Source: a virus (lineage: Monodnaviria > Loebvirae > Hofneiviricota > Faserviricetes > Tubulavirales > Inoviridae). Taken from it: a stretch of 9,340 nucleotides of DNA. The position numbers and the translations under genes are program-made. Positions 379 to 9,340 of the stretch are shown in pieces. The notes beneath the pieces were generated by a model. The model made no database searches and had not been told where the DNA came from. It saw only the letters and a program-made list of their open reading frames with translations. Position 1 is the stretch's first letter. Each line of letters begins with the position of its first letter. The stretch lies in IMG/VR virus record IMGVR_UViG_2609460053_000007. The stretch is one strand, 5' to 3'.

Positions 379-401
379 GGCCTGACCTCACCAATCAGGC
401 C
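379..401. repeat. Inverted repeat / hairpin GGCCTGA-(9 nt)-TCAGGCC
   Basis: Perfect 7-bp stem 379-385 / 395-401. The stop codon of the minus ORF 388-582 lies in the loop. Followed on the plus strand by TGTTCATCC. Possible terminator for a short plus-strand transcript or an ori/packaging hairpin. Confidence 0.35.
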
Positions 402-582
402 TGTTCATCCAGTTAGTTGGTAAATCTGTACCTGATACACGAGAATCAAACACCACTTCTTCAGTGCCATCACCATGATGCCGGAATGCTGGATCTTTAA
501 GAAGCATCACTTTCAGCTCCTGATGTGTCATGAATTTTTCCATGATAAGCCCCGATGAATGCTGCCGCGCCGAATCAGCCAT
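388..582 (-). CDS. Hypothetical small protein (64 aa; possibly 47-51 aa from internal ATGs), cargo position
   Basis: ORF in the six-frame track. No convincing SD before the first ATG; the internal starts (MEKF.., MTHQ..) have weak GGGG/GGAA upstream. No recognisable motif. May be a spurious ORF in a structured non-coding region. Confidence 0.3.
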   Translation of the reverse strand: MADSARQHSSGLIMEKFMTHQELKVMLLKDPAFRHHGDGTEEVVFDSRVSGTDLPTNWMNRPDW

Positions 583-727: not shown

Positions 728-976
728 TCACCACCAATAAACAAACGGACGATGACTGACCGGAAAAGCAATGCCGTCAGCATCATGACCACGCATTACC
801 TGATTGAGAAGCCTTCTGACTTCACGACGCTCAGGCCTGGTCATCATCATATTGCGATACCAGGACGGCGATTTATCAAACCATCTGGCACAACTGGCAA
901 AATGTGAACCTACACGACGATAAGACTTAAGGCGGCCACCGGGAAGTCGGTCACGCGCCTTATTTTTTACAGACAT
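728..976 (-). CDS. Hypothetical small basic Arg/Trp-rich protein (82 aa), cargo position downstream of gIV
   Basis: ORF with a good RBS (GAGGA, 6 nt before the ATG at 974-976). Same orientation as the core genes. No recognisable domain. Confidence 0.45.
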   Translation of the reverse strand: MSVKNKARDRLPGGRLKSYRRVGSHFASCARWFDKSPSWYRNMMMTRPERREVRRLLNQVMRGHDADGIAFPVSHRPFVYWW

Positions 977-1064: not shown

Positions 1065-2309
1065 TCAGTTCAGGTTGTCCCGGAACAGTTCACCGCTCCT
1101 CGCGGCGCTGCGGGGCGTCGCCCTGCTCCGGTCAACCTTTCTGACCTGAAGCATCACCATAATATCAGTCTTGTTGCTTTCACTGGTACGGGAACCGAAG
1201 AAGCTCCAGCCGGAACTGGCCTTACTGTCTTTCTGTTCAGCAAGGCCACCAAGTAAAATAATATCACCATCTGCAAGGCTGACTTCGGTTGTTACATCAC
1301 GCTTGATAAGGGTTGGCGAGTTATTGACGCCGGTTTCAGTGGTCACAAAGTTGGAAAGCTGCTGCTGAATCTTGAGATCCATTGTCCGACTTTTGATTGA
1401 TGGCGTCACGTTAAACAAAACACCGCTGGAACGATATTCAACGGATTGCGTTGTCGTATTGTTATTCACCGTAACACTGCCCAGTACTGGCACATCAGAG
1501 CCGACTGAAAAAGACGCTGAGGCATTATTTTTTACCCGCAGTCGTGGCGCACTGACAACAGTAAAACGACTGTCGGTTTTCAGCAGATTGAAAATGGCAT
1601 CAATGGAGCCGGTTCGAATATTGATAAAATTATCCAGTCCGGCAGCACCAACTGAAATATTGAATTTATCAGACAGAATTTTAGCCGCTAAAAGAATGCC
1701 GGAGCCGTCAGACTGCGAGGTCTGAACCTCAAAAACATAACCAGAAACAACCACTTCATCACTCATCGTATCCAGCGAAGTGACCAGTGTTTTCAGGATG
1801 GCGATATCCTCTTTCGTACCATAATAAACCAGAATATCACCGGTTCGATTGATGTAGTTGCTTGCCCCTGATGAACCTTTTAGCGAATCGTCAGAAATCA
1901 CGGCTCCACTGTTATTGAAGGAGCCTGAAACGTAGCCGCCAAGAATATCAGACAGGTAGGCAACAGAACGGTACTGAGGCGTATAAGTCCATGTATAACG
2001 TGGCTTAACCGGCTCTTTCGGCGTATAGGGCGCGATAAAATCAACACCCTTTTTCGTCCATATTCGAATGTTCATATTGCCAAGATAACGGGTTACAAAT
2101 TCCCGTTCATCAATATCAGGTGTTAACCTGAATGTAATCATTCGTTCATCATTAACAAGCTGTGGATCTAGCATATACGGGACTTTAAGCACCTCACTGT
2201 AAATAAGAGAAATAGCCTCCGGTAGCTTGACTTTATTTAATTCAAGCTCTGACCCTGCGAAAGCACATGAAGAAAATAGTAGCGTTAATGCGAGTAAAAT
2301 CTTTTTCAT
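1065..2309 (-). CDS. Phage-encoded secretin (pIV-like) for virion extrusion
   Basis: 414 aa; N-terminal signal peptide MKKILLALTLLFSSCAFA with AxA cleavage motif; C-terminal secretin-like region (VVSAPRLRV...DGDIILLGGL...). Last gene of the morphogenesis block, as in Ff phages. Start ATG overlaps the gI stop (TAATG at 2307-2311). Confidence 0.85.
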   Translation of the reverse strand: MKKILLALTLLFSSCAFAGSELELNKVKLPEAISLIYSEVLKVPYMLDPQLVNDERMITFRLTPDIDEREFVTRYLGNMNIRIWTKKGVDFIAPYTPKEPVKPRYTWTYTPQYRSVAYLSDILGGYVSGSFNNSGAVISDDSLKGSSGASNYINRTGDILVYYGTKEDIAILKTLVTSLDTMSDEVVVSGYVFEVQTSQSDGSGILLAAKILSDKFNISVGAAGLDNFINIRTGSIDAIFNLLKTDSRFTVVSAPRLRVKNNASASFSVGSDVPVLGSVTVNNNTTTQSVEYRSSGVLFNVTPSIKSRTMDLKIQQQLSNFVTTETGVNNSPTLIKRDVTTEVSLADGDIILLGGLAEQKDSKASSGWSFFGSRTSESNKTDIMVMLQVRKVDRSRATPRSAARSGELFRDNLN

Positions 2310-3334
2310 TATTTTTTCCCCGTATAAAGCGTCACACGCTCACCATCAATAATTCCGCTCATCAACATCCCTTTGTAATTAAAACTGGATGCAGGAACGG
2401 CACGCAAAACACCGGCACCATTAACAAGAATCACAAACGCCCTGCCTTCACTGGTCATTCTCCCTGATATACGCCACTCGGTTGAAAGTGGCGGTTCAGC
2501 TGGTTCTGAGGGAGTATCTGGTGCTGGAGTAGCAGCGGAAGAACGAAACATGGCCGCATCACGTACATCTGTTGTAGTCAAATCTGGCGAGGGATCGCTT
2601 CGGCCAAACGTGCTGAAAAATGAGTAAATCAGCCAGCCTGACCCGATAAACATCAATGGAAAAAGCACAAGAAAGAACCTGACTTTGCCAGAATTCCAGA
2701 TGCTCTGGCGTTTATCTGTCTGCTTTTCATTACCGTTATTTCCTTCATAACTTTTGTAAAGTTCAAAAATATCAGGGTTATATTTATTGCGATAACTGGT
2801 GACGAGGTTGCTTTTATAGATTTTGTGGCCTGAATATACGTCAATGCAGTAATGATTATTCAGGCCCAACGCTTTCAGCTTGCGCATCCGGTAAGTTGTT
2901 TCTATTTTGTCTTTCAGAAAGCGAGCAATATTAGAAAGTGACTGATTTACAATAACCAAATCACAGCTAATACCCGTTTCAGGGTGCGTAAAATGACGAT
3001 GTTCAGCAATAAATGATTTCTTCTCAGCCGTCATATCCTTATCGCTACCGAAGATTCGCCATGCTTCATCAATAACAATTAAATCACCAAACTGGCAAAA
3101 GCTCCCTTCCCCACCTTTAAAAGGAAAGAAATCTGCTTTAAGCACATCATCATTATCCACAACAATAATTTCTCCCGTTGCATCAGGATAACGTTCGGTG
3201 ATTTTATCTTTTTGTAAACCATAAATGTTCGTCACAACTCTCCGGCCGCTGGTAAATGCCGGAATAATGACATTGCAAACGGCTTCATAACTTTTTCCTG
3301 AGCCGGGTATGCCAATATATGCAGAAATAGCCAT
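2309..3334 (-). CDS. Zot-like assembly ATPase (pI-like)
   Basis: 341 aa; Walker A GIPGSGKS near the N-terminus, Walker B-like LIVIDEAW, single TM segment (FFLVLFPLMFIGSGWLIYSFF) in the C-terminal half. Position between gVI and gIV. Confidence 0.9.
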   Translation of the reverse strand: MAISAYIGIPGSGKSYEAVCNVIIPAFTSGRRVVTNIYGLQKDKITERYPDATGEIIVVDNDDVLKADFFPFKGGEGSFCQFGDLIVIDEAWRIFGSDKDMTAEKKSFIAEHRHFTHPETGISCDLVIVNQSLSNIARFLKDKIETTYRMRKLKALGLNNHYCIDVYSGHKIYKSNLVTSYRNKYNPDIFELYKSYEGNNGNEKQTDKRQSIWNSGKVRFFLVLFPLMFIGSGWLIYSFFSTFGRSDPSPDLTTTDVRDAAMFRSSAATPAPDTPSEPAEPPLSTEWRISGRMTSEGRAFVILVNGAGVLRAVPASSFNYKGMLMSGIIDGERVTLYTGKK

Positions 3335-5936: not shown

Positions 5937-6254
5937 TCAGCCTTTTATTTCAGTAATGCCGCCATCTGATGAAATGTTATAAGTTACTCCTTCCCTCCCC
6001 TCCATTGACCAGACGCGAACATATACAGGTATCTGGACTAACTTACCGATAAAATTATTTGCCTGATTCATTACACCGGCATTAACAAGAGCCTGAGATA
6101 CACGAATAATAATCTGGTCTTGCTTAGTGCCGCCAAAACCATCAGGAATCTCTAAGCCAACACCAATTTCATTATAGTATCCCTGACCATTGACCTTATT
6201 ACGCTGGCGAGCACCAAGCATTTTACCTTTTACAAAAAGACCATAATTAGACAT
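5937..6254 (-). CDS. Putative ssDNA-binding protein (pV-position)
   Basis: 105 aa, immediately downstream of gII and upstream of the coat genes. Assignment is by position and size only; no clear similarity to f1 pV was recognised. Confidence 0.55.
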   Translation of the reverse strand: MSNYGLFVKGKMLGARQRNKVNGQGYYNEIGVGLEIPDGFGGTKQDQIIIRVSQALVNAGVMNQANNFIGKLVQIPVYVRVWSMEGREGVTYNISSDGGITEIKG

Positions 6255-6265
6255 ATCACTCTCCT

Positions 6266-7318
6266 TTAATGCCAGTTACTGGCATGTGAAATACGGTTAT
6301 AATCGAAAATTAAACCTTTCTCATAAACCCATGATGGAATTTTGGCTGGTTTGGCTTCAAGAGTACGAACCAACGGAACAACGTTATTAGAATCCGGTGA
6401 CTCACAATAAAAGTTAATATCTATTCCGAAAGAAAGTAATTCTTTACGGTGTCGGTAGAATGTAGGTTTCGGTAACATCTCTTTCATGTTCGCGCCCTGC
6501 TTCCACAATAAATATGTAGACTGTATTTTTCTTGGGAGATTAATTATTTTTTCATCAGTTAATATAGTATTTTGATTCATTTCTATTCTCCCTACATAGT
6601 CAGAGAATAATTTATTGGGCGTCTCAATATTCCAGCTATTACCAAGCGTAAGATTCAAATCAATTAATTCAGTTGTTCTTAATGTTAATTCAATGCGTAA
6701 TTTATCTTTTGACCAGTCCAGTAAACCAGCTTTAACGAATTCGTCTGCCATCTGGTGCCCTTTTTTGCCAGATGTATGCTCATCATATTTTGAATAAAAT
6801 TTCAGGCTCCAACGACGGGAGTTTTTCCCTAAGTAAACAGTGCCACCTTTACCACAGGCGCGACCGTGGCGAGTTTTAGCTTTAAATTCTGCGGCATATA
6901 ACCATGCGCGGACATTTTCTAATGTTGACAATGAATACATGTAATTGATATCGATGCGCGAGATCTTAAATTGCCCTTCCATGACCTGCCGATAGGATGG
7001 TAGATCATGAGGAATATGCAGTAATGCCAATATTCTGGCGTAAGCTGTTAACACCAACCCTTGCAAATCGTCGGAACCGATAACAGAGTGACCTTGCAAA
7101 AACTTTGATGGATTACCGTCAATGTAGAGATGTGTTGCCCGACCTTCACCATCAGATCCAACAGACCTTACTTTCATTGTGGACTCATGCGAACCGCGAA
7201 CGGTCAACCGTTTTACTGTTTCCCACTCCACTGCACCGTCAGCATCGACGCTGACGACACTACCAGCCGGTAACGGTCGGTGTGTGCAAGGCAGGATTCC
7301 GGTAAACCAGTCGATCAT
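6266..7318 (-). CDS. Rolling-circle replication initiator (pII / RstA-like)
   Basis: 350 aa; N-terminus MIDW... and motif KFLQGHSVIGSDDL resemble f1 pII (MID..., KVLQGHNVFGTTDL, recalled from memory). First gene of the minus-strand block, divergent from the HTH regulator. Confidence 0.85.
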   Translation of the reverse strand: MIDWFTGILPCTHRPLPAGSVVSVDADGAVEWETVKRLTVRGSHESTMKVRSVGSDGEGRATHLYIDGNPSKFLQGHSVIGSDDLQGLVLTAYARILALLHIPHDLPSYRQVMEGQFKISRIDINYMYSLSTLENVRAWLYAAEFKAKTRHGRACGKGGTVYLGKNSRRWSLKFYSKYDEHTSGKKGHQMADEFVKAGLLDWSKDKLRIELTLRTTELIDLNLTLGNSWNIETPNKLFSDYVGRIEMNQNTILTDEKIINLPRKIQSTYLLWKQGANMKEMLPKPTFYRHRKELLSFGIDINFYCESPDSNNVVPLVRTLEAKPAKIPSWVYEKGLIFDYNRISHASNWH

Positions 7319-7344
7319 AAGTAGTCACACCCATCAAAATATGT

Positions 7345-7416
7345 GTCAATAGTCATTTGTGAGCAGATTGAATGGTCACAATGTAATATGCTCAGTTCTG
7401 ACAGTCAATACATTTG
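7345..7416. promoter_or_regulatory. Imperfect direct repeats GTCAATA(GT)CATTTG: candidate operators in the divergent control region
   Basis: gtcaatagtcatttg at 7345-7359 and gtcaatacatttg at 7404-7416. The second overlaps the predicted -35 of the gII promoter. Confidence 0.35.
7380..7408 (-). promoter_or_regulatory. Candidate sigma70 promoter for gII (minus strand)
   Basis: On the minus strand: -35 TTGACT (7403-7408), 17-nt spacer, -10 TACATT (7380-7385). Confidence 0.4.
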
Positions 7417-7427
7417 CAATGTTTAAA

Positions 7428-7457
7428 TTGTCAGAAATGAGCATCAAATCTAACTAT
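7428..7457 (+). promoter_or_regulatory. Candidate promoter for the HTH regulator gene
   Basis: -35 TTGTCA (7428-7433), 18-nt spacer, -10 AACTAT (7452-7457). Weaker match than the gII promoter. Confidence 0.25.
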
Positions 7458-7489
7458 TGAAAAACCACTGTTAAGATGGAGCCAAGTAG

Positions 7490-7936
7490 ATGGGCAACAA
7501 TGAGCATGAAGTTATGGCGGACAAACAGAGAGCAGAACGTATCAAAAAGGTAATTCTGGAACACTCGACTTATGAAGAACTGGCCAAGAAGACTGGCATT
7601 AGCGTGAGTACGCTGGTCAGGATAGCGTCCGGCAAAACTGAACCTAAATTCAGTGACATCATTCAGATAGCTAAAATTACGGGTGCAGACTTAAACACCT
7701 TAGCTTATGGCTATGCTCTTGATGTTAAAGAAGAAGCTACCGAGCGGAAGCTAATCACTTCTGCGGATGGATATACTGATGAAGAAACCACTAACGCACA
7801 TAATTTCATCGTGTGGAACATCAGGACACTGGAAAAACAAGATATTCTGGCACTCGCAAGGCAGGTTTCTGCCTTAAGTTCATACACTTACAGTACTAAA
7901 ATGTTTATGAAAAAAGCGGTGTCTGGAGAAGAGTAA
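7490..7936 (+). CDS. HTH XRE/Cro-CI family transcriptional regulator, putative phage repressor (RstR-like position)
   Basis: 148 aa; helix-turn-helix signature EELAKKTGISVSTLVRIASGK plus a C-terminal extension of about 70 aa. SD GGAG 8 nt upstream. Divergent from the replication gene, as rstR is from rstA in CTX-type phages. Confidence 0.8.
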   Translation: MGNNEHEVMADKQRAERIKKVILEHSTYEELAKKTGISVSTLVRIASGKTEPKFSDIIQIAKITGADLNTLAYGYALDVKEEATERKLITSADGYTDEETTNAHNFIVWNIRTLEKQDILALARQVSALSSYTYSTKMFMKKAVSGEE

Positions 7937-7947
7937 AAGGATTAACA

Positions 7948-8001
7948 GTCTCAGGAATGAGACAAACGTGCAGTATTACCAACACTGCACGTTCTTTATT
8001 G
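7948..8001 (+). terminator. Tandem hairpins after the regulator gene (terminator or operator palindrome)
   Basis: GTCTCA-GGAA-TGAGAC (7948-7963), then a perfect 10-bp stem AACGTGCAGT (7965-7974) / ACTGCACGTT (7984-7993) with 9-nt loop, followed by CTTTATTG. Confidence 0.5.
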
Positions 8002-8035
8002 TGCGAATTTTGAACAGTGAAAAAGGATCAAAAGG

Positions 8036-8458
8036 ATGAGTAGAAATAACGAAACAAGCGGCGTTGAACTGGTTGTCGTGGGCGTATTTGCTTTCTGTCT
8101 GGCAGTTGTTGCCTGGCTAATGAAAACTTTCGATGTTGAATGGCAAACAGCGCTGGAAACTGCGCCTGGCCTGATAGTGTGGCTGCTTGTTGTCGGGGCG
8201 GGGATCTTTTTCGGGATCAAAATGGAAACAGGCCTTGTTCGCTGGGGTGCTCCACTGGCGATCGCCCTTCTGATTCCGGTATTCAAACCAATTCTTAAGG
8301 AAGCTGCCGGAGTTCGTGAAACGGGTGGGCTGGTTTTCGATGATATGGTTTCGTGGTACGGAACTGGCTGGGGAATGTCGTTGATGTTTTTCGGAATTCT
8401 TATCATCGGATACGGGATGCTTTATTGGTGGCACAGAAGAAATTCATATTACTGGTAA
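8036..8458 (+). CDS. Hypothetical integral membrane protein, about 4 TM helices (accessory operon gene 1)
   Basis: 140 aa; hydrophobic segments at about residues 12-29, 45-61, 70-83 and 112-132; aromatic/basic C-terminus WWHRRNSYYW. SD AGGA 8 nt upstream of the ATG. Confidence 0.75.
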   Translation: MSRNNETSGVELVVVGVFAFCLAVVAWLMKTFDVEWQTALETAPGLIVWLLVVGAGIFFGIKMETGLVRWGAPLAIALLIPVFKPILKEAAGVRETGGLVFDDMVSWYGTGWGMSLMFFGILIIGYGMLYWWHRRNSYYW

Positions 8459-8486
8459 TCAATAAAACGTAGAAGAGAGGAAATAT

Positions 8487-8762
8487 ATGAAACTGAATCC
8501 TGAGAAATACAATAGAAATATCACCCTGCTATGTCCTGTGTGCGGAAATACAGAGATGGAACACGAGGAAGAGTCTGAAGTCGTCAGATGTGTAGGCTGC
8601 GGGAAAGAATTCACTAATGATGAGTTAATCCAAGAAAACGGGGTGAGTATTGACGCCCATGTGGATGAGATAAAAGAAGAGTTAACAAAAGATATTCAAA
8701 AACAGTTTAACGACATGCTCAAAAAGGCATTTAAAGGAAGTAAAAATATAAGGATTAAATAA
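8487..8762 (+). CDS. Hypothetical zinc-ribbon protein (accessory operon gene 2)
   Basis: 91 aa; Cys16-x2-Cys19 ... Cys35-x2-Cys38 (CPVCG-x15-CVGCG); acidic middle and Lys-rich C-terminal helix-like tail. Strong SD AGAGAGGA upstream. Stop overlaps the next start (TAATG at 8760-8764). Confidence 0.7.
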   Translation: MKLNPEKYNRNITLLCPVCGNTEMEHEEESEVVRCVGCGKEFTNDELIQENGVSIDAHVDEIKEELTKDIQKQFNDMLKKAFKGSKNIRIK

Positions 8763-9241
8763 TGACAACAAGTGATGCCATCGCTTTAGCTGCGCTTGTA
8801 GTATCGATTTACACTATCATATCATCAGAAGTGAAGTCGAGAAAAAGTGATAGAGAACAAAAGGTTATAAAGGATGAGCAAGACAGATTACGTAAGTTGC
8901 TTCTGGAAAAAGAAACAAAGTCAGCAATTAATGAGATGAAGGCTGAGCTTGGTGCCCGCCTCGTAAAAATAGCCAAAAACAACTATAGACTCAAGATATT
9001 TAATAGAGGGAAAGTTGAGGCTAAAAATATAGAGATTCATTTCCCTGATAACGATGGCAATGAATATCTTTCCATGCATGATGTAGAAGATAAATTTCCA
9101 TATGAAGTATTACACCCGCAACATGGGATTGAAATTTTAGCGGGACTAAGCTTTGGAAGCAAAACTAAATACCGAATAAAACTCATATGGGATGACAATT
9201 ATAAAAAAAGGAATGAAGAGGAGTTTTTCATTTCTATATAA
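8762..9241 (+). CDS. Hypothetical N-terminally membrane-anchored coiled-coil protein (accessory operon gene 3)
   Basis: 159 aa; N-terminal hydrophobic helix (AIALAALVVSIYTIIS), highly charged K/E/R-rich helical region, then a C-terminal domain. Start is translationally coupled to gene 2. Followed by the strong hairpin at 9273-9309. Confidence 0.7.
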   Translation: MTTSDAIALAALVVSIYTIISSEVKSRKSDREQKVIKDEQDRLRKLLLEKETKSAINEMKAELGARLVKIAKNNYRLKIFNRGKVEAKNIEIHFPDNDGNEYLSMHDVEDKFPYEVLHPQHGIEILAGLSFGSKTKYRIKLIWDDNYKKRNEEEFFISI

Positions 9242-9272
9242 ATTGGTTCGCACAATGACGTTATGCTAAAGA

Positions 9273-9309
9273 GGCCGCTGCGGGATACGATTTTCGCAGC
9301 GGCCTTTTC
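9273..9309 (+). terminator. Rho-independent terminator-like hairpin after the accessory operon (copy 2 of 182-218)
   Basis: Identical to 182-218: 10-bp GC stem, 12-nt loop, TTTTC tail, 32 nt after the stop codon at 9239-9241. Confidence 0.6.
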
Positions 9310-9338
9310 AACATAACGAGTCGTACATTATGCGCACC
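9306..9338 (-). other. dif-like XerC/XerD site (copy 2 of 215-247)
   Basis: Identical to 215-247; the window ends 2 nt beyond the XerC arm. Confidence 0.65.
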
Positions 9339-9340
9339 AA

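Follow-up and report, generated by a model that had tools for sequence, protein, structure and literature searches.

A portable zinc-ribbon/membrane-protein gene pair in the dif-proximal cargo slot of a CUS-1/YpfPhi-type inovirus: a candidate anti-phage module

Since 2002, attention has been drawn to the unexplained terminal open reading frames (ORFs) of the filamentous phages CUS-1, YpfPhi and UPPhi, which the review on YpfPhi calls the key open question (PMC4266046). Here, we analyze three genes of this kind, g1, g2 and g3, in an inovirus genome (IMG/VR record IMGVR_UViG_2609460053_000007; the window is this whole stretch of 9,340 nucleotides (nt)). The carrier is a CUS-1/YpfPhi-type inovirus that integrates at dif, i.e. 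a member of a family described previously (PMC4266046). Our data suggest that the three genes make up two layers, a conserved gene, g1, and a portable pair, g2-g3, and that the pair may function in anti-phage defense.

The closest described counterparts are the h3-h5 genes next to dif in UPPhi phages, where h3 is present in 221/229 prophages and h4/h5 in 56/57 with no function assigned (Shapiro and Putonti 2020, PMC7307601). These are the same three genes, g1 corresponding to h3, g2 to h4 and g3 to h5, and the counts for h3 versus h4/h5 match the split between g1 and g2-g3 reported below. UPPhi phages differ in having IKe-like structural genes and a regulator of 60 amino acids (aa) where the window has CUS-1/YpfPhi-like genes and a 148-aa helix-turn-helix (HTH) repressor, and the UPPhi study does not separate a portable pair (PMC7307601). 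In CUS-1 (orf1/orf1a) and YpfPhi (YPO2271/2272) the attL-adjacent region is the same slot, reaching from the RstR-like repressor to the dif-type site, and it is a known variable region that differs between otherwise 99%-identical phages (PMC4266046). A reading made earlier from the sequence alone, which saw no counterpart of these genes in canonical inovirus biology, therefore went too far. The cargo of CUS-1 differs from that of the window in that UTI89, the arrangement of which we take to be that of CUS-1, has g1 followed by a gene for a 369-aa protein.

The P2/P4 hotspots likewise have conserved flanks that enclose mutually exclusive cargoes (Rousset et al. 2022, PMC9122126), the cargoes here including TIR, REase and AbiJ-like proteins. 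Unlike in these hotspots, the carrier is a 9-kb single-stranded DNA (ssDNA) inovirus that uses the XerCD system of its host, the slot spans only ~0.8-1.2 kb, and the cargoes are known from sequence alone. The KKP module and PfiAT of Pf phages are also lysogeny-linked accessory modules of filamentous prophages affecting other phages (PMC11341870, PMC12328805); their proteins (kinases/phosphatase and a ParE-type toxin) are unrelated to those described here, and both the host and the integration system differ. The arrangement in the window is thus known in kind, as a prophage defense hotspot and as a small membrane-effector system, while the gene family and its inovirus setting are uncharacterized.

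The three genes are co-directional and lie between the repressor gene and a Xer-type attachment site:

8036-8458, plus strand: g1, ORF of 140 aa
8487-8762, plus strand: g2, ORF of 91 aa
8762-9241, plus strand: g3, ORF of 159 aa

This tight linkage and the spacing of the genes had been noted in the sequence-only reading, and both are borne out. Between the g1 stop codon TAA, the last base of which is 8458, and the g2 ATG, which starts at 8487, is a 28-nt gap with a GAGAGG Shine-Dalgarno motif (8475-8480) 6 nt 5' of the g2 start; the g2 stop codon TAA (8760-8762) and the g3 ATG (8762-8764) overlap by one base as TAATG, with AAGGA at 8750-8754; and AGGA at 8024-8027 lies 8 nt 5' of the g1 ATG. 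This spacing suggests that the genes are co-transcribed as an operon. In a simple scan of the plus strand from 7300 to 9340 no sigma-70 promoter was found. All three genes are on the strand of the repressor gene, opposite to every replication and structural gene, and with these core functions encoded elsewhere on the minus strand the earlier classification of g1-g3 as cargo stands. To judge by their many homologs, which are conserved at the protein level, g1, g2 and g3 are real genes. Two antisense ORFs overlap g1 (7996-8406, minus strand, 136 aa; 8117-8434, minus strand, 105 aa); the plus-strand frame is taken as the real gene because it is conserved at the protein level across 18 homologs.

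The proposal that the three genes form a single module did not hold. In a megablast survey of 5,426 complete Escherichia coli genomes, g1 was detected in 127 and g2-g3 in 28, and g1 is absent from all g2-g3 loci outside inoviruses. Co-occurrence, which had been named beforehand as a check on the proposal, is accordingly not seen for the trio and is seen for the pair. Close relatives (~70 of g3 and ~100 of g2) are mostly from Enterobacterales, and a g3 profile search over 1.84 billion representatives gave 1,273 clusters at 50% identity (466 at E <= 1e-10), nearly all with proteins of 145-165 aa. Scanning a single genome for each species, with g3 alignment A2 because the diverse alignment A5 was too divergent, we identified 45 g3 loci in Alpha-, Beta-, Gamma- and Deltaproteobacteria and in a few oddly labelled metagenome-assembled genomes (MAGs), and more than 40 pair loci lack both an inovirus and g1. 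Using hidden Markov models built here, we found a g2 homolog directly upstream of g3 and in the same orientation in 42 of these 45 loci; the other three comprise two loci at a contig edge and one with a broken g3. Of 48 mutually distinct pairs, 12 have a 4-nt and 19 a 1-nt overlap between g2 stop and g3 start, 8 have the two abutting and 9 have 5-25 nt between them; g2 and g3 have also diversified together (Mantel r = 0.65, p <= 0.001). In total, the comparative sequence data indicate that g2-g3 is an obligate, translationally coupled and horizontally mobile two-gene module. We considered two alternative origins of the pair and rejected both: hhalign shows no relationship between g2 and g3 as would be expected for a split duplication, and phrog_4852, a candidate for a fused phage protein that was split, matches g2 only.

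One pair, 43% identical to that of the window, is found in identical form and with largely common flanks (loci L029-L038 and L056) in Variovorax, Hydrogenophaga, Xenophilus and Stutzerimonas stutzeri as well as in MAGs labelled Lysobacterales, Rhizobiaceae and Bacteroidetes, which implies recent spread on a broad-host-range element. In a MAG labelled Candidatus Nanosynbacter (L025), the trio of the enterobacterial inovirus is present at 97% identity; this copy is almost certainly a binning contaminant, and the MAG labels Methanoculleus and Coriobacteriia need like caution.

Within E. coli inoviruses, g2-g3 occupies a position at which other genes are found in other strains. In strains with different cargo, similarity to the window is lost at, or a few bases from, the stop codon of g1, and the cargo always ends at the same arm of the phage attachment site attP. 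Thus, g1 and the attP arm GGTTCGCACAATGACGTTATGC flank at least eight different cargoes. The slot contents are as follows, where g2' and g3' are diverged homologs:

Window type: g2-g3; 28 E. coli genomes
VR50 type: a 264-aa protein (PDC-S35-like N-terminus and DpnII/MboI nuclease domain), then a DUF6953 protein; 24 genomes (L002, 10586-11380)
MS8345 type: g3' and a 123-aa gene, g2' deleted; 15 genomes
UTI89 type: a 369-aa protein; 10 genomes
O55:H7 DEC5E: a 368-aa protein with the same N-terminus as the VR50-type 264-aa protein, and a CAP12/Pycsar-type TIR; 1 genome (L021, 4042-5148)
NC101: an AbiJ_NTD4 and DUF7014 protein
TW10590: a 367-aa protein
Strain 8178: an 89-aa and a 240-aa protein
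TUM14759 (9,565-nt episome): a frameshifted gene for a transmembrane (TM)-plus-sandwich protein

Of the cargoes counted in E. coli, g2-g3 is the commonest. The flanks are conserved, the cargoes are mutually exclusive, and recognized defense genes are among them, as shown by matches to the CAP12/Pycsar TIR domain (PF10137, 3.6e-20), to AbiJ_NTD4 (8.6e-27) and, for the VR50-type nuclease domain, to PF18742 (7e-59) and PADLOC Aga_Helical-REase (1e-34). In these respects the slot after g1 behaves like an inovirus defense hotspot, of which g1 and attP would mark the left and right edges, respectively. We rejected a model in which g1 serves all the variable effectors as their sensor, since outside this slot the pair does without g1 and the TIR and REase cargoes are similar to candidates that consist of one gene.

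Three cargoes merit a separate description. The 264-aa and 368-aa proteins have a PDC-S35-like N-terminal domain in common and different C-terminal effectors, i.e. a domain swap within the slot. The 5' part of the TUM14759 cargo encodes a TM helix and a motif, FNKGK..NVEIKVP, that resembles the g3 sandwich. In the MS8345 allele (L080, 3519-4515) and 14 further genomes, g2' is precisely deleted in such a way that its upstream region, including the ribosome-binding site, directly precedes its final codons, while g3' (155 aa) and the 123-aa third gene are intact; the carriers are enterotoxigenic, uropathogenic and avian pathogenic E. coli (APEC) and pig isolates.

g1 codes for a 140-aa polytopic inner-membrane protein with four predicted TM helices (phrog_4174). 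The gene is retained whatever cargo follows, is found at the same position in the IKe-like UPPhi backbone and is present in nearly all members of two backbones; it is an accessory gene conserved among enterobacterial inoviruses that integrate at dif. In the UPPhi prophage of ECONIH2 (L082, 9314-10889), g1-g2-g3 are present at ~98% identity starting at ~7952 of the window, in an IKe-like UPPhi backbone where the 60-aa regulator takes the place of the 148-aa HTH repressor; the accessory block has therefore been exchanged between two inovirus lineages. The g1 structure model is a four-helix membrane protein of low confidence (predicted local distance difference test score (pLDDT) 63), and the fold search was uninformative. 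Matches were found neither in Pfam nor in PADLOC (E <= 1), and PHROGs offers only a function-unassigned family. It is a guess, which we make with low confidence, that g1 provides envelope-level exclusion or immunity in lysogens. Outside any inovirus, a g1 homolog (62% identity) adjoins a VirB/Trb-type type IV secretion system operon on a 31-kb plasmid contig (L019, 1509-1922).

g2 codes for a 91-aa cytoplasmic protein with a Cys4 zinc ribbon (C16, C19, C35 and C38, invariant across the 48 pairs) followed by a helix and a conserved basic C-terminal tail, AFxGSKxIxIK; its net charge is -4, that of its last 15 residues +6, and it has no hydrophobic segment. The protein belongs to NCBIfam NF047912, the ECs_2282 family of putative zinc-binding proteins (65.2 bits versus a cut-off of 37, E = 3.6e-18), in agreement with its RefSeq annotation. 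Beyond this family name, we found only sub-threshold generic zinc-ribbon matches in Pfam, generic zinc fingers among PDB sequences and no match among INPHARED proteins, and our literature search found no paper mentioning ECs_2282 or the RefSeq accessions of these proteins.

g3 codes for a 159-aa single-pass membrane protein (phrog_6723). Its structure model (pLDDT 84) has a continuous helix from residue 3 to 59, with a TM segment at ~5-24 and a charged remainder, and an immunoglobulin (Ig)-like beta-sandwich of 7-8 strands at 63-158. The protein is predicted to be N-out; given the charge bias around the TM helix (K+R 0.06 before it versus 3.7 in the next 15 residues), the beta-sandwich is predicted to be cytoplasmic. 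Conserved A8, A11 and S15 form a small-residue face that suggests packing of TM helices. Among PDB sequences g3 has only spurious FliD matches, and in BFVD only uncharacterized viral TM-plus-sandwich proteins were found. The architectures predicted from the sequence alone (four TM helices; Cys4 zinc ribbon; single-pass protein with a charged helix) are therefore correct as far as they go, except that g3 continues beyond the coiled coil into a beta-sandwich.

Outside inoviruses, the pair is found in neighborhoods rich in defense genes, including (i) SIR2-STAND, type I restriction-modification (RM) and AAA_13 genes, (ii) an integrase island with ArdA and a type III-like SNF2/DUF4391/methylase/ResIII system, (iii) AIPR, a DprA-like protein, mSLOG and DUF488, (iv) type I RM and Mrr on a P4-like island, and (v) Klebsiella plasmids with TacAT, ParDE and a NACHT protein. 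The 293 non-redundant neighbors within 4.5 kb include type I, III and IIG RM, Mrr, ShosA (ShosTA), PsyrA, PycC and PycTIR, a CBASS-III set (cyclase, HORMA, TRIP13, TIR/Cap17), two ThsB-TIR proteins (Thoeris), PtuA/AriA-like ATPases, PD-Lambda-3, PD-T7-4, PDC-S06 and RmrA as well as integrases, transposases and MobA. In addition, WP_001610303.1, a g3 homolog on IncF plasmids with 39% identity to g3, is listed in Table S10 of DefensePredictor (PMC13092281) as 'Predicted novel defense gene' with a mean log-odds of 5.9; its single remote match there is to a Csx23 profile (coverage 0.16, probability 64.7). In the portion of that text and its tables searched, the protein was not found among the validated systems. 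WP_001553315 (TM 1-27, coiled coil 24-57), which is part of the four-gene DS-30 in the same portion, is an unrelated 86-aa protein.

Combining the distribution of the genes with their neighborhoods and predicted structures, the explanation that we favor, with moderate confidence, is that the locus consists of two independent layers, conserved g1 and swappable g2-g3, and that g2-g3 is a candidate abortive-infection-type anti-phage module. Defense or abortive infection, one of the functions suggested by the sequence-only reading, is on this evidence (more than 40 independent loci and a machine-learning prediction) the best-supported function for g2-g3, and not for the trio as one system. We infer that in such a module (i) g3 would assemble in the inner membrane by means of its single TM helix with the A8/A11/S15 face and its long oligomerizing helix, (ii) g2 would act as a cytoplasmic sensor or regulator that contacts the cytoplasmic beta-sandwich of g3, (iii) infection would release or trigger g3, and (iv) assembled g3 would collapse membrane integrity or the proton-motive force. 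By analogy, g3 resembles in layout Csx23 (PMC11014256) and Cap15, which have an N-terminal TM region and a small cytoplasmic sensing domain and are thought to disrupt membranes when activated. Unlike these proteins, g3 has a zinc-ribbon protein as its partner, lacks a cyclase or CRISPR partner and has no sequence or fold match to them; we therefore rejected the idea that g3 is a nucleotide-gated effector of the Csx23/Cap15 type, which would be expected to show similarity of the cytoplasmic domain and to be linked with a cyclase or a type III CRISPR system.

Several observations weigh against this explanation. A catalytic or known pore-forming domain was identified neither in g3, the model of which has no enzyme fold, nor in g2, and g3 has no match in Pfam or PADLOC v2 (E <= 1) and only a function-unassigned family in PHROGs. 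Matches of g2 in PADLOC v2 are confined to the zinc-ribbon part (PDC-S64 at 4e-7, HEC-08 and PDC-M14A) and align with ~50-60 internal residues of the 339-aa PDC-S64 and 358-aa HEC-08 profiles and, weakly (E = 0.002), with residues 18-99 of the 152-aa PDC-M14A profile. The pair is found in only eight IMG/VR contigs, three of which are this phage. The neighbor survey is qualitative and has no matched background, although the pattern is consistent over many unrelated loci, and guilt by association also fits toxin-antitoxin (TA) or other selfish modules, which reside in the same islands. Finally, the g2'-less g3' alleles in 15 genomes mean either that g2 is dispensable for tolerating g3 or that these copies are dead.

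Known systems were also compared individually. The pair is not PDC-S64, HEC-08 or PDC-M14, as g2 matches none of these candidates over their full length and g3 matches none at all. Kiwa and Zorya do not apply: for Kiwa, neither g1 nor g3 has a PADLOC or Pfam match at E <= 1 and a DUF4868 protein is absent; for Zorya, there are no PADLOC or Pfam matches and the proteins are far too small. The earlier statement that the genes are not recognizable as a named system thus agrees with PADLOC, which has nothing for g1 and g3.

A broader formulation, which we put forward only tentatively, is that g2-g3 represents a new and widespread family of minimal (~750 bp) anti-phage systems in which a zinc ribbon gates a membrane protein via an Ig-like switch, and that the dif-proximal slot is a dedicated hotspot. 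Should the pair protect, it would be among the smallest two-component systems and would have a new zinc-ribbon-to-membrane-effector logic, and 9-kb ssDNA phages would be seen to traffic defense genes between chromosomes and conjugative plasmids via Xer sites. This would also provide an ecological reason for the retention of these prophages and for the fitness gain of their hosts in extraintestinal pathogenic E. coli (ExPEC), APEC and Yersinia, including the phage of the plague bacillus. Should it not protect, the pair would still represent a large uncharacterized family.

Alternatively, g2-g3 could be a TA or addiction module in which g3 is a small holin-like membrane toxin and g2 a zinc-ribbon antitoxin that the coupled operon yields first, and which stabilizes conjugative plasmids and the readily lost episomal or tandem prophage. 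We consider this unlikely, even though the gene order, the small size and the translational coupling fit, 85 of the 91 plasmids with a g3 homolog are conjugative, the pair lies beside TacAT and ParDE on plasmids, and the YpfPhi episome is reported to be unstable (PMC4266046). The similarities to known TA or lysis proteins are weak. Residues 1-63 of g3, i.e. the TM segment and the following helix, match the holin family phrog_1350 at E = 0.006; g3 was rejected as a holin given this weak match, the lack of an endolysin nearby and the non-lytic lifestyle of inoviruses. g2 matches the MqsA-family zinc finger TIGR03830 at E = 0.001, with 18.9 bits far below the cut-off of 61.8, and Pfam detects no HTH domain in it; therefore, g2 was also rejected as an MqsA-like type II antitoxin, which would have a C-terminal HTH, and it lacks any DNA-binding domain typical of type II antitoxins. 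A strict TA reading would be further weakened, provided that these copies are expressed and active, by the persistence of intact g3' with a clean, natural deletion of g2' in 15 diverse E. coli genomes. Moreover, most loci are chromosomal defense islands and not replicons in need of stabilizing. Given that many TA systems are defense systems, this alternative overlaps with the abortive-infection-type module that we favor and does not exclude it.

Decidedly unlikely in our view is that g1-g3, or g1 alone, bring about envelope-level superinfection exclusion of filamentous or pilus-dependent phages or of conjugation, e.g. via TolQRA or the pilus. Several features are in line with such a function: g1-g3 are in the lysogeny-strand module beside the repressor, g1 is at the same position in two inovirus backbones and has a homolog beside a plasmid secretion operon, g3 homologs are common on conjugative plasmids, and resident YpfPhi partly protects against superinfection (PMC4266046). 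However, g2-g3 occur from Alpha- to Deltaproteobacteria in the more than 40 loci without an inovirus or g1, the main domain of g3 is predicted to be cytoplasmic and not periplasmic, and homology to known exclusion proteins is lacking, the low-confidence g1 model adding no information. That g1-g3 are host-directed fitness or virulence cargo modulating the envelope in animals, like ctxAB at the equivalent end of CTXphi, is most improbable. CUS-1 and YpfPhi do confer modest fitness gains in vivo (PMC4266046), and ExPEC and APEC isolates are numerous among the carriers. However, the pair is also common in bacteria from soil and water and in those associated with plants, a secretion signal is absent from both proteins, and the alternative slot cargo is of the defense and not the virulence type.

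With respect to the carrier, the window has an exact direct repeat (1-249 = 9092-9340) and therefore represents a circular genome of 9,091 nt with a 249-nt overlap, in which the 3' end of g3 and attP are present twice. Its assignment follows from the inovirus core genes on one strand, a divergent RstR-like repressor, a XerCD-type attachment site and tandem integration at dif:

1065-2309, minus strand: secretin gene, inovirus core
2309-3334, minus strand: gene for the Zot-type assembly ATPase, inovirus core
5937-6254, minus strand: gene for the ssDNA-binding protein, inovirus core
6266-7318, minus strand: rep, inovirus core
Minus strand: coat protein genes, inovirus core
7490-7936, plus strand: gene for the RstR-like HTH repressor, 148 aa (HTH_3, 1.6e-9; phrog_3557; phage_RstR weak)
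7948-7963 and 7965-7993, plus strand: tandem hairpins 3' of the repressor gene (RNA fold z = -3.4)
9243-9340 (= 152-249), plus strand: forked attP hairpin, 98 nt (ssDNA free energy -28 kcal/mol, z = -7)

Tandem prophage copies of the window sequence are found in E. coli chromosomes; the prophage abuts the XerC arm of chromosomal dif beside hipBA, and in UTI89 the same attP sequence is at the prophage/dif junction near hipA. The INPHARED phage collection contains no whole-genome nucleotide match, and an Rfam scan of the window detected no RNA family. Across attP, at the position of YPO2280a/YPO2281, are two small ORFs (388-582, minus strand, 64 aa; 728-976, minus strand, 82 aa), which are annotated as 'hypothetical' in RefSeq in all copies and have no Pfam or PADLOC family. 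NZ_CP128883.1 (L022; 9,565 nt), deposited for E. coli TUM14759 as an 'untypable plasmid', is this inovirus, complete and circular and presumably in its replicative form.

The structures bracketing the g1-g3 block, a tandem hairpin upstream and a GC stem downstream, are present as described in the sequence-only reading. In the upstream structure, the second hairpin (7965-7993), with a stem of 10 bp and TCTTTATT after it, likely acts as a leaky terminator for transcription of the repressor gene. ECONIH2/UPPhi and others are homologous to the window from ~7952-7955 onward, which is the left edge of the block common to UPPhi phages. The downstream GC stem (9272-9282/9295-9305) has 11 bp, is followed by TTTTC and had been read as a terminator; it is instead part of attP, forming the tip of the imperfect 98-nt hairpin. 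At 9245-9271 is a XerC/D-like site with a 5-nt spacer, GGTTCGCACAA-TGACG-TTATGCTAAAG, and an inverted dif-like site with an 11-nt spacer consists of AACATAA (9310-9316) and TTATGCGCACC (9328-9338), the arms being assigned by what we take to be the dif consensus. Because its arms are XerC/XerD-like, the hairpin is considered the attP structure itself and more than a mere terminator, and it may double as the terminator of the g1-g2-g3 transcript. It fits the CTXphi-style folded attP predicted in the YpfPhi review (PMC4266046).

E. coli plasmids have copies of the left arm and stem of attP (9244-9315 of the window, ~93% identical) at ~475 places. In IncF/APEC plasmids and those of Klebsiella, the arm copy is directly 3' of a diverged trio of g2', g3' and a gene for a 123/127-aa protein (L023, 7885-7954; L003-L006, 8903-8924), the proteins of which are only 39-62% identical. 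These plasmid copies look like captured ends of inovirus cargo; alternatively, the Xer-site arm travels with the cassette.

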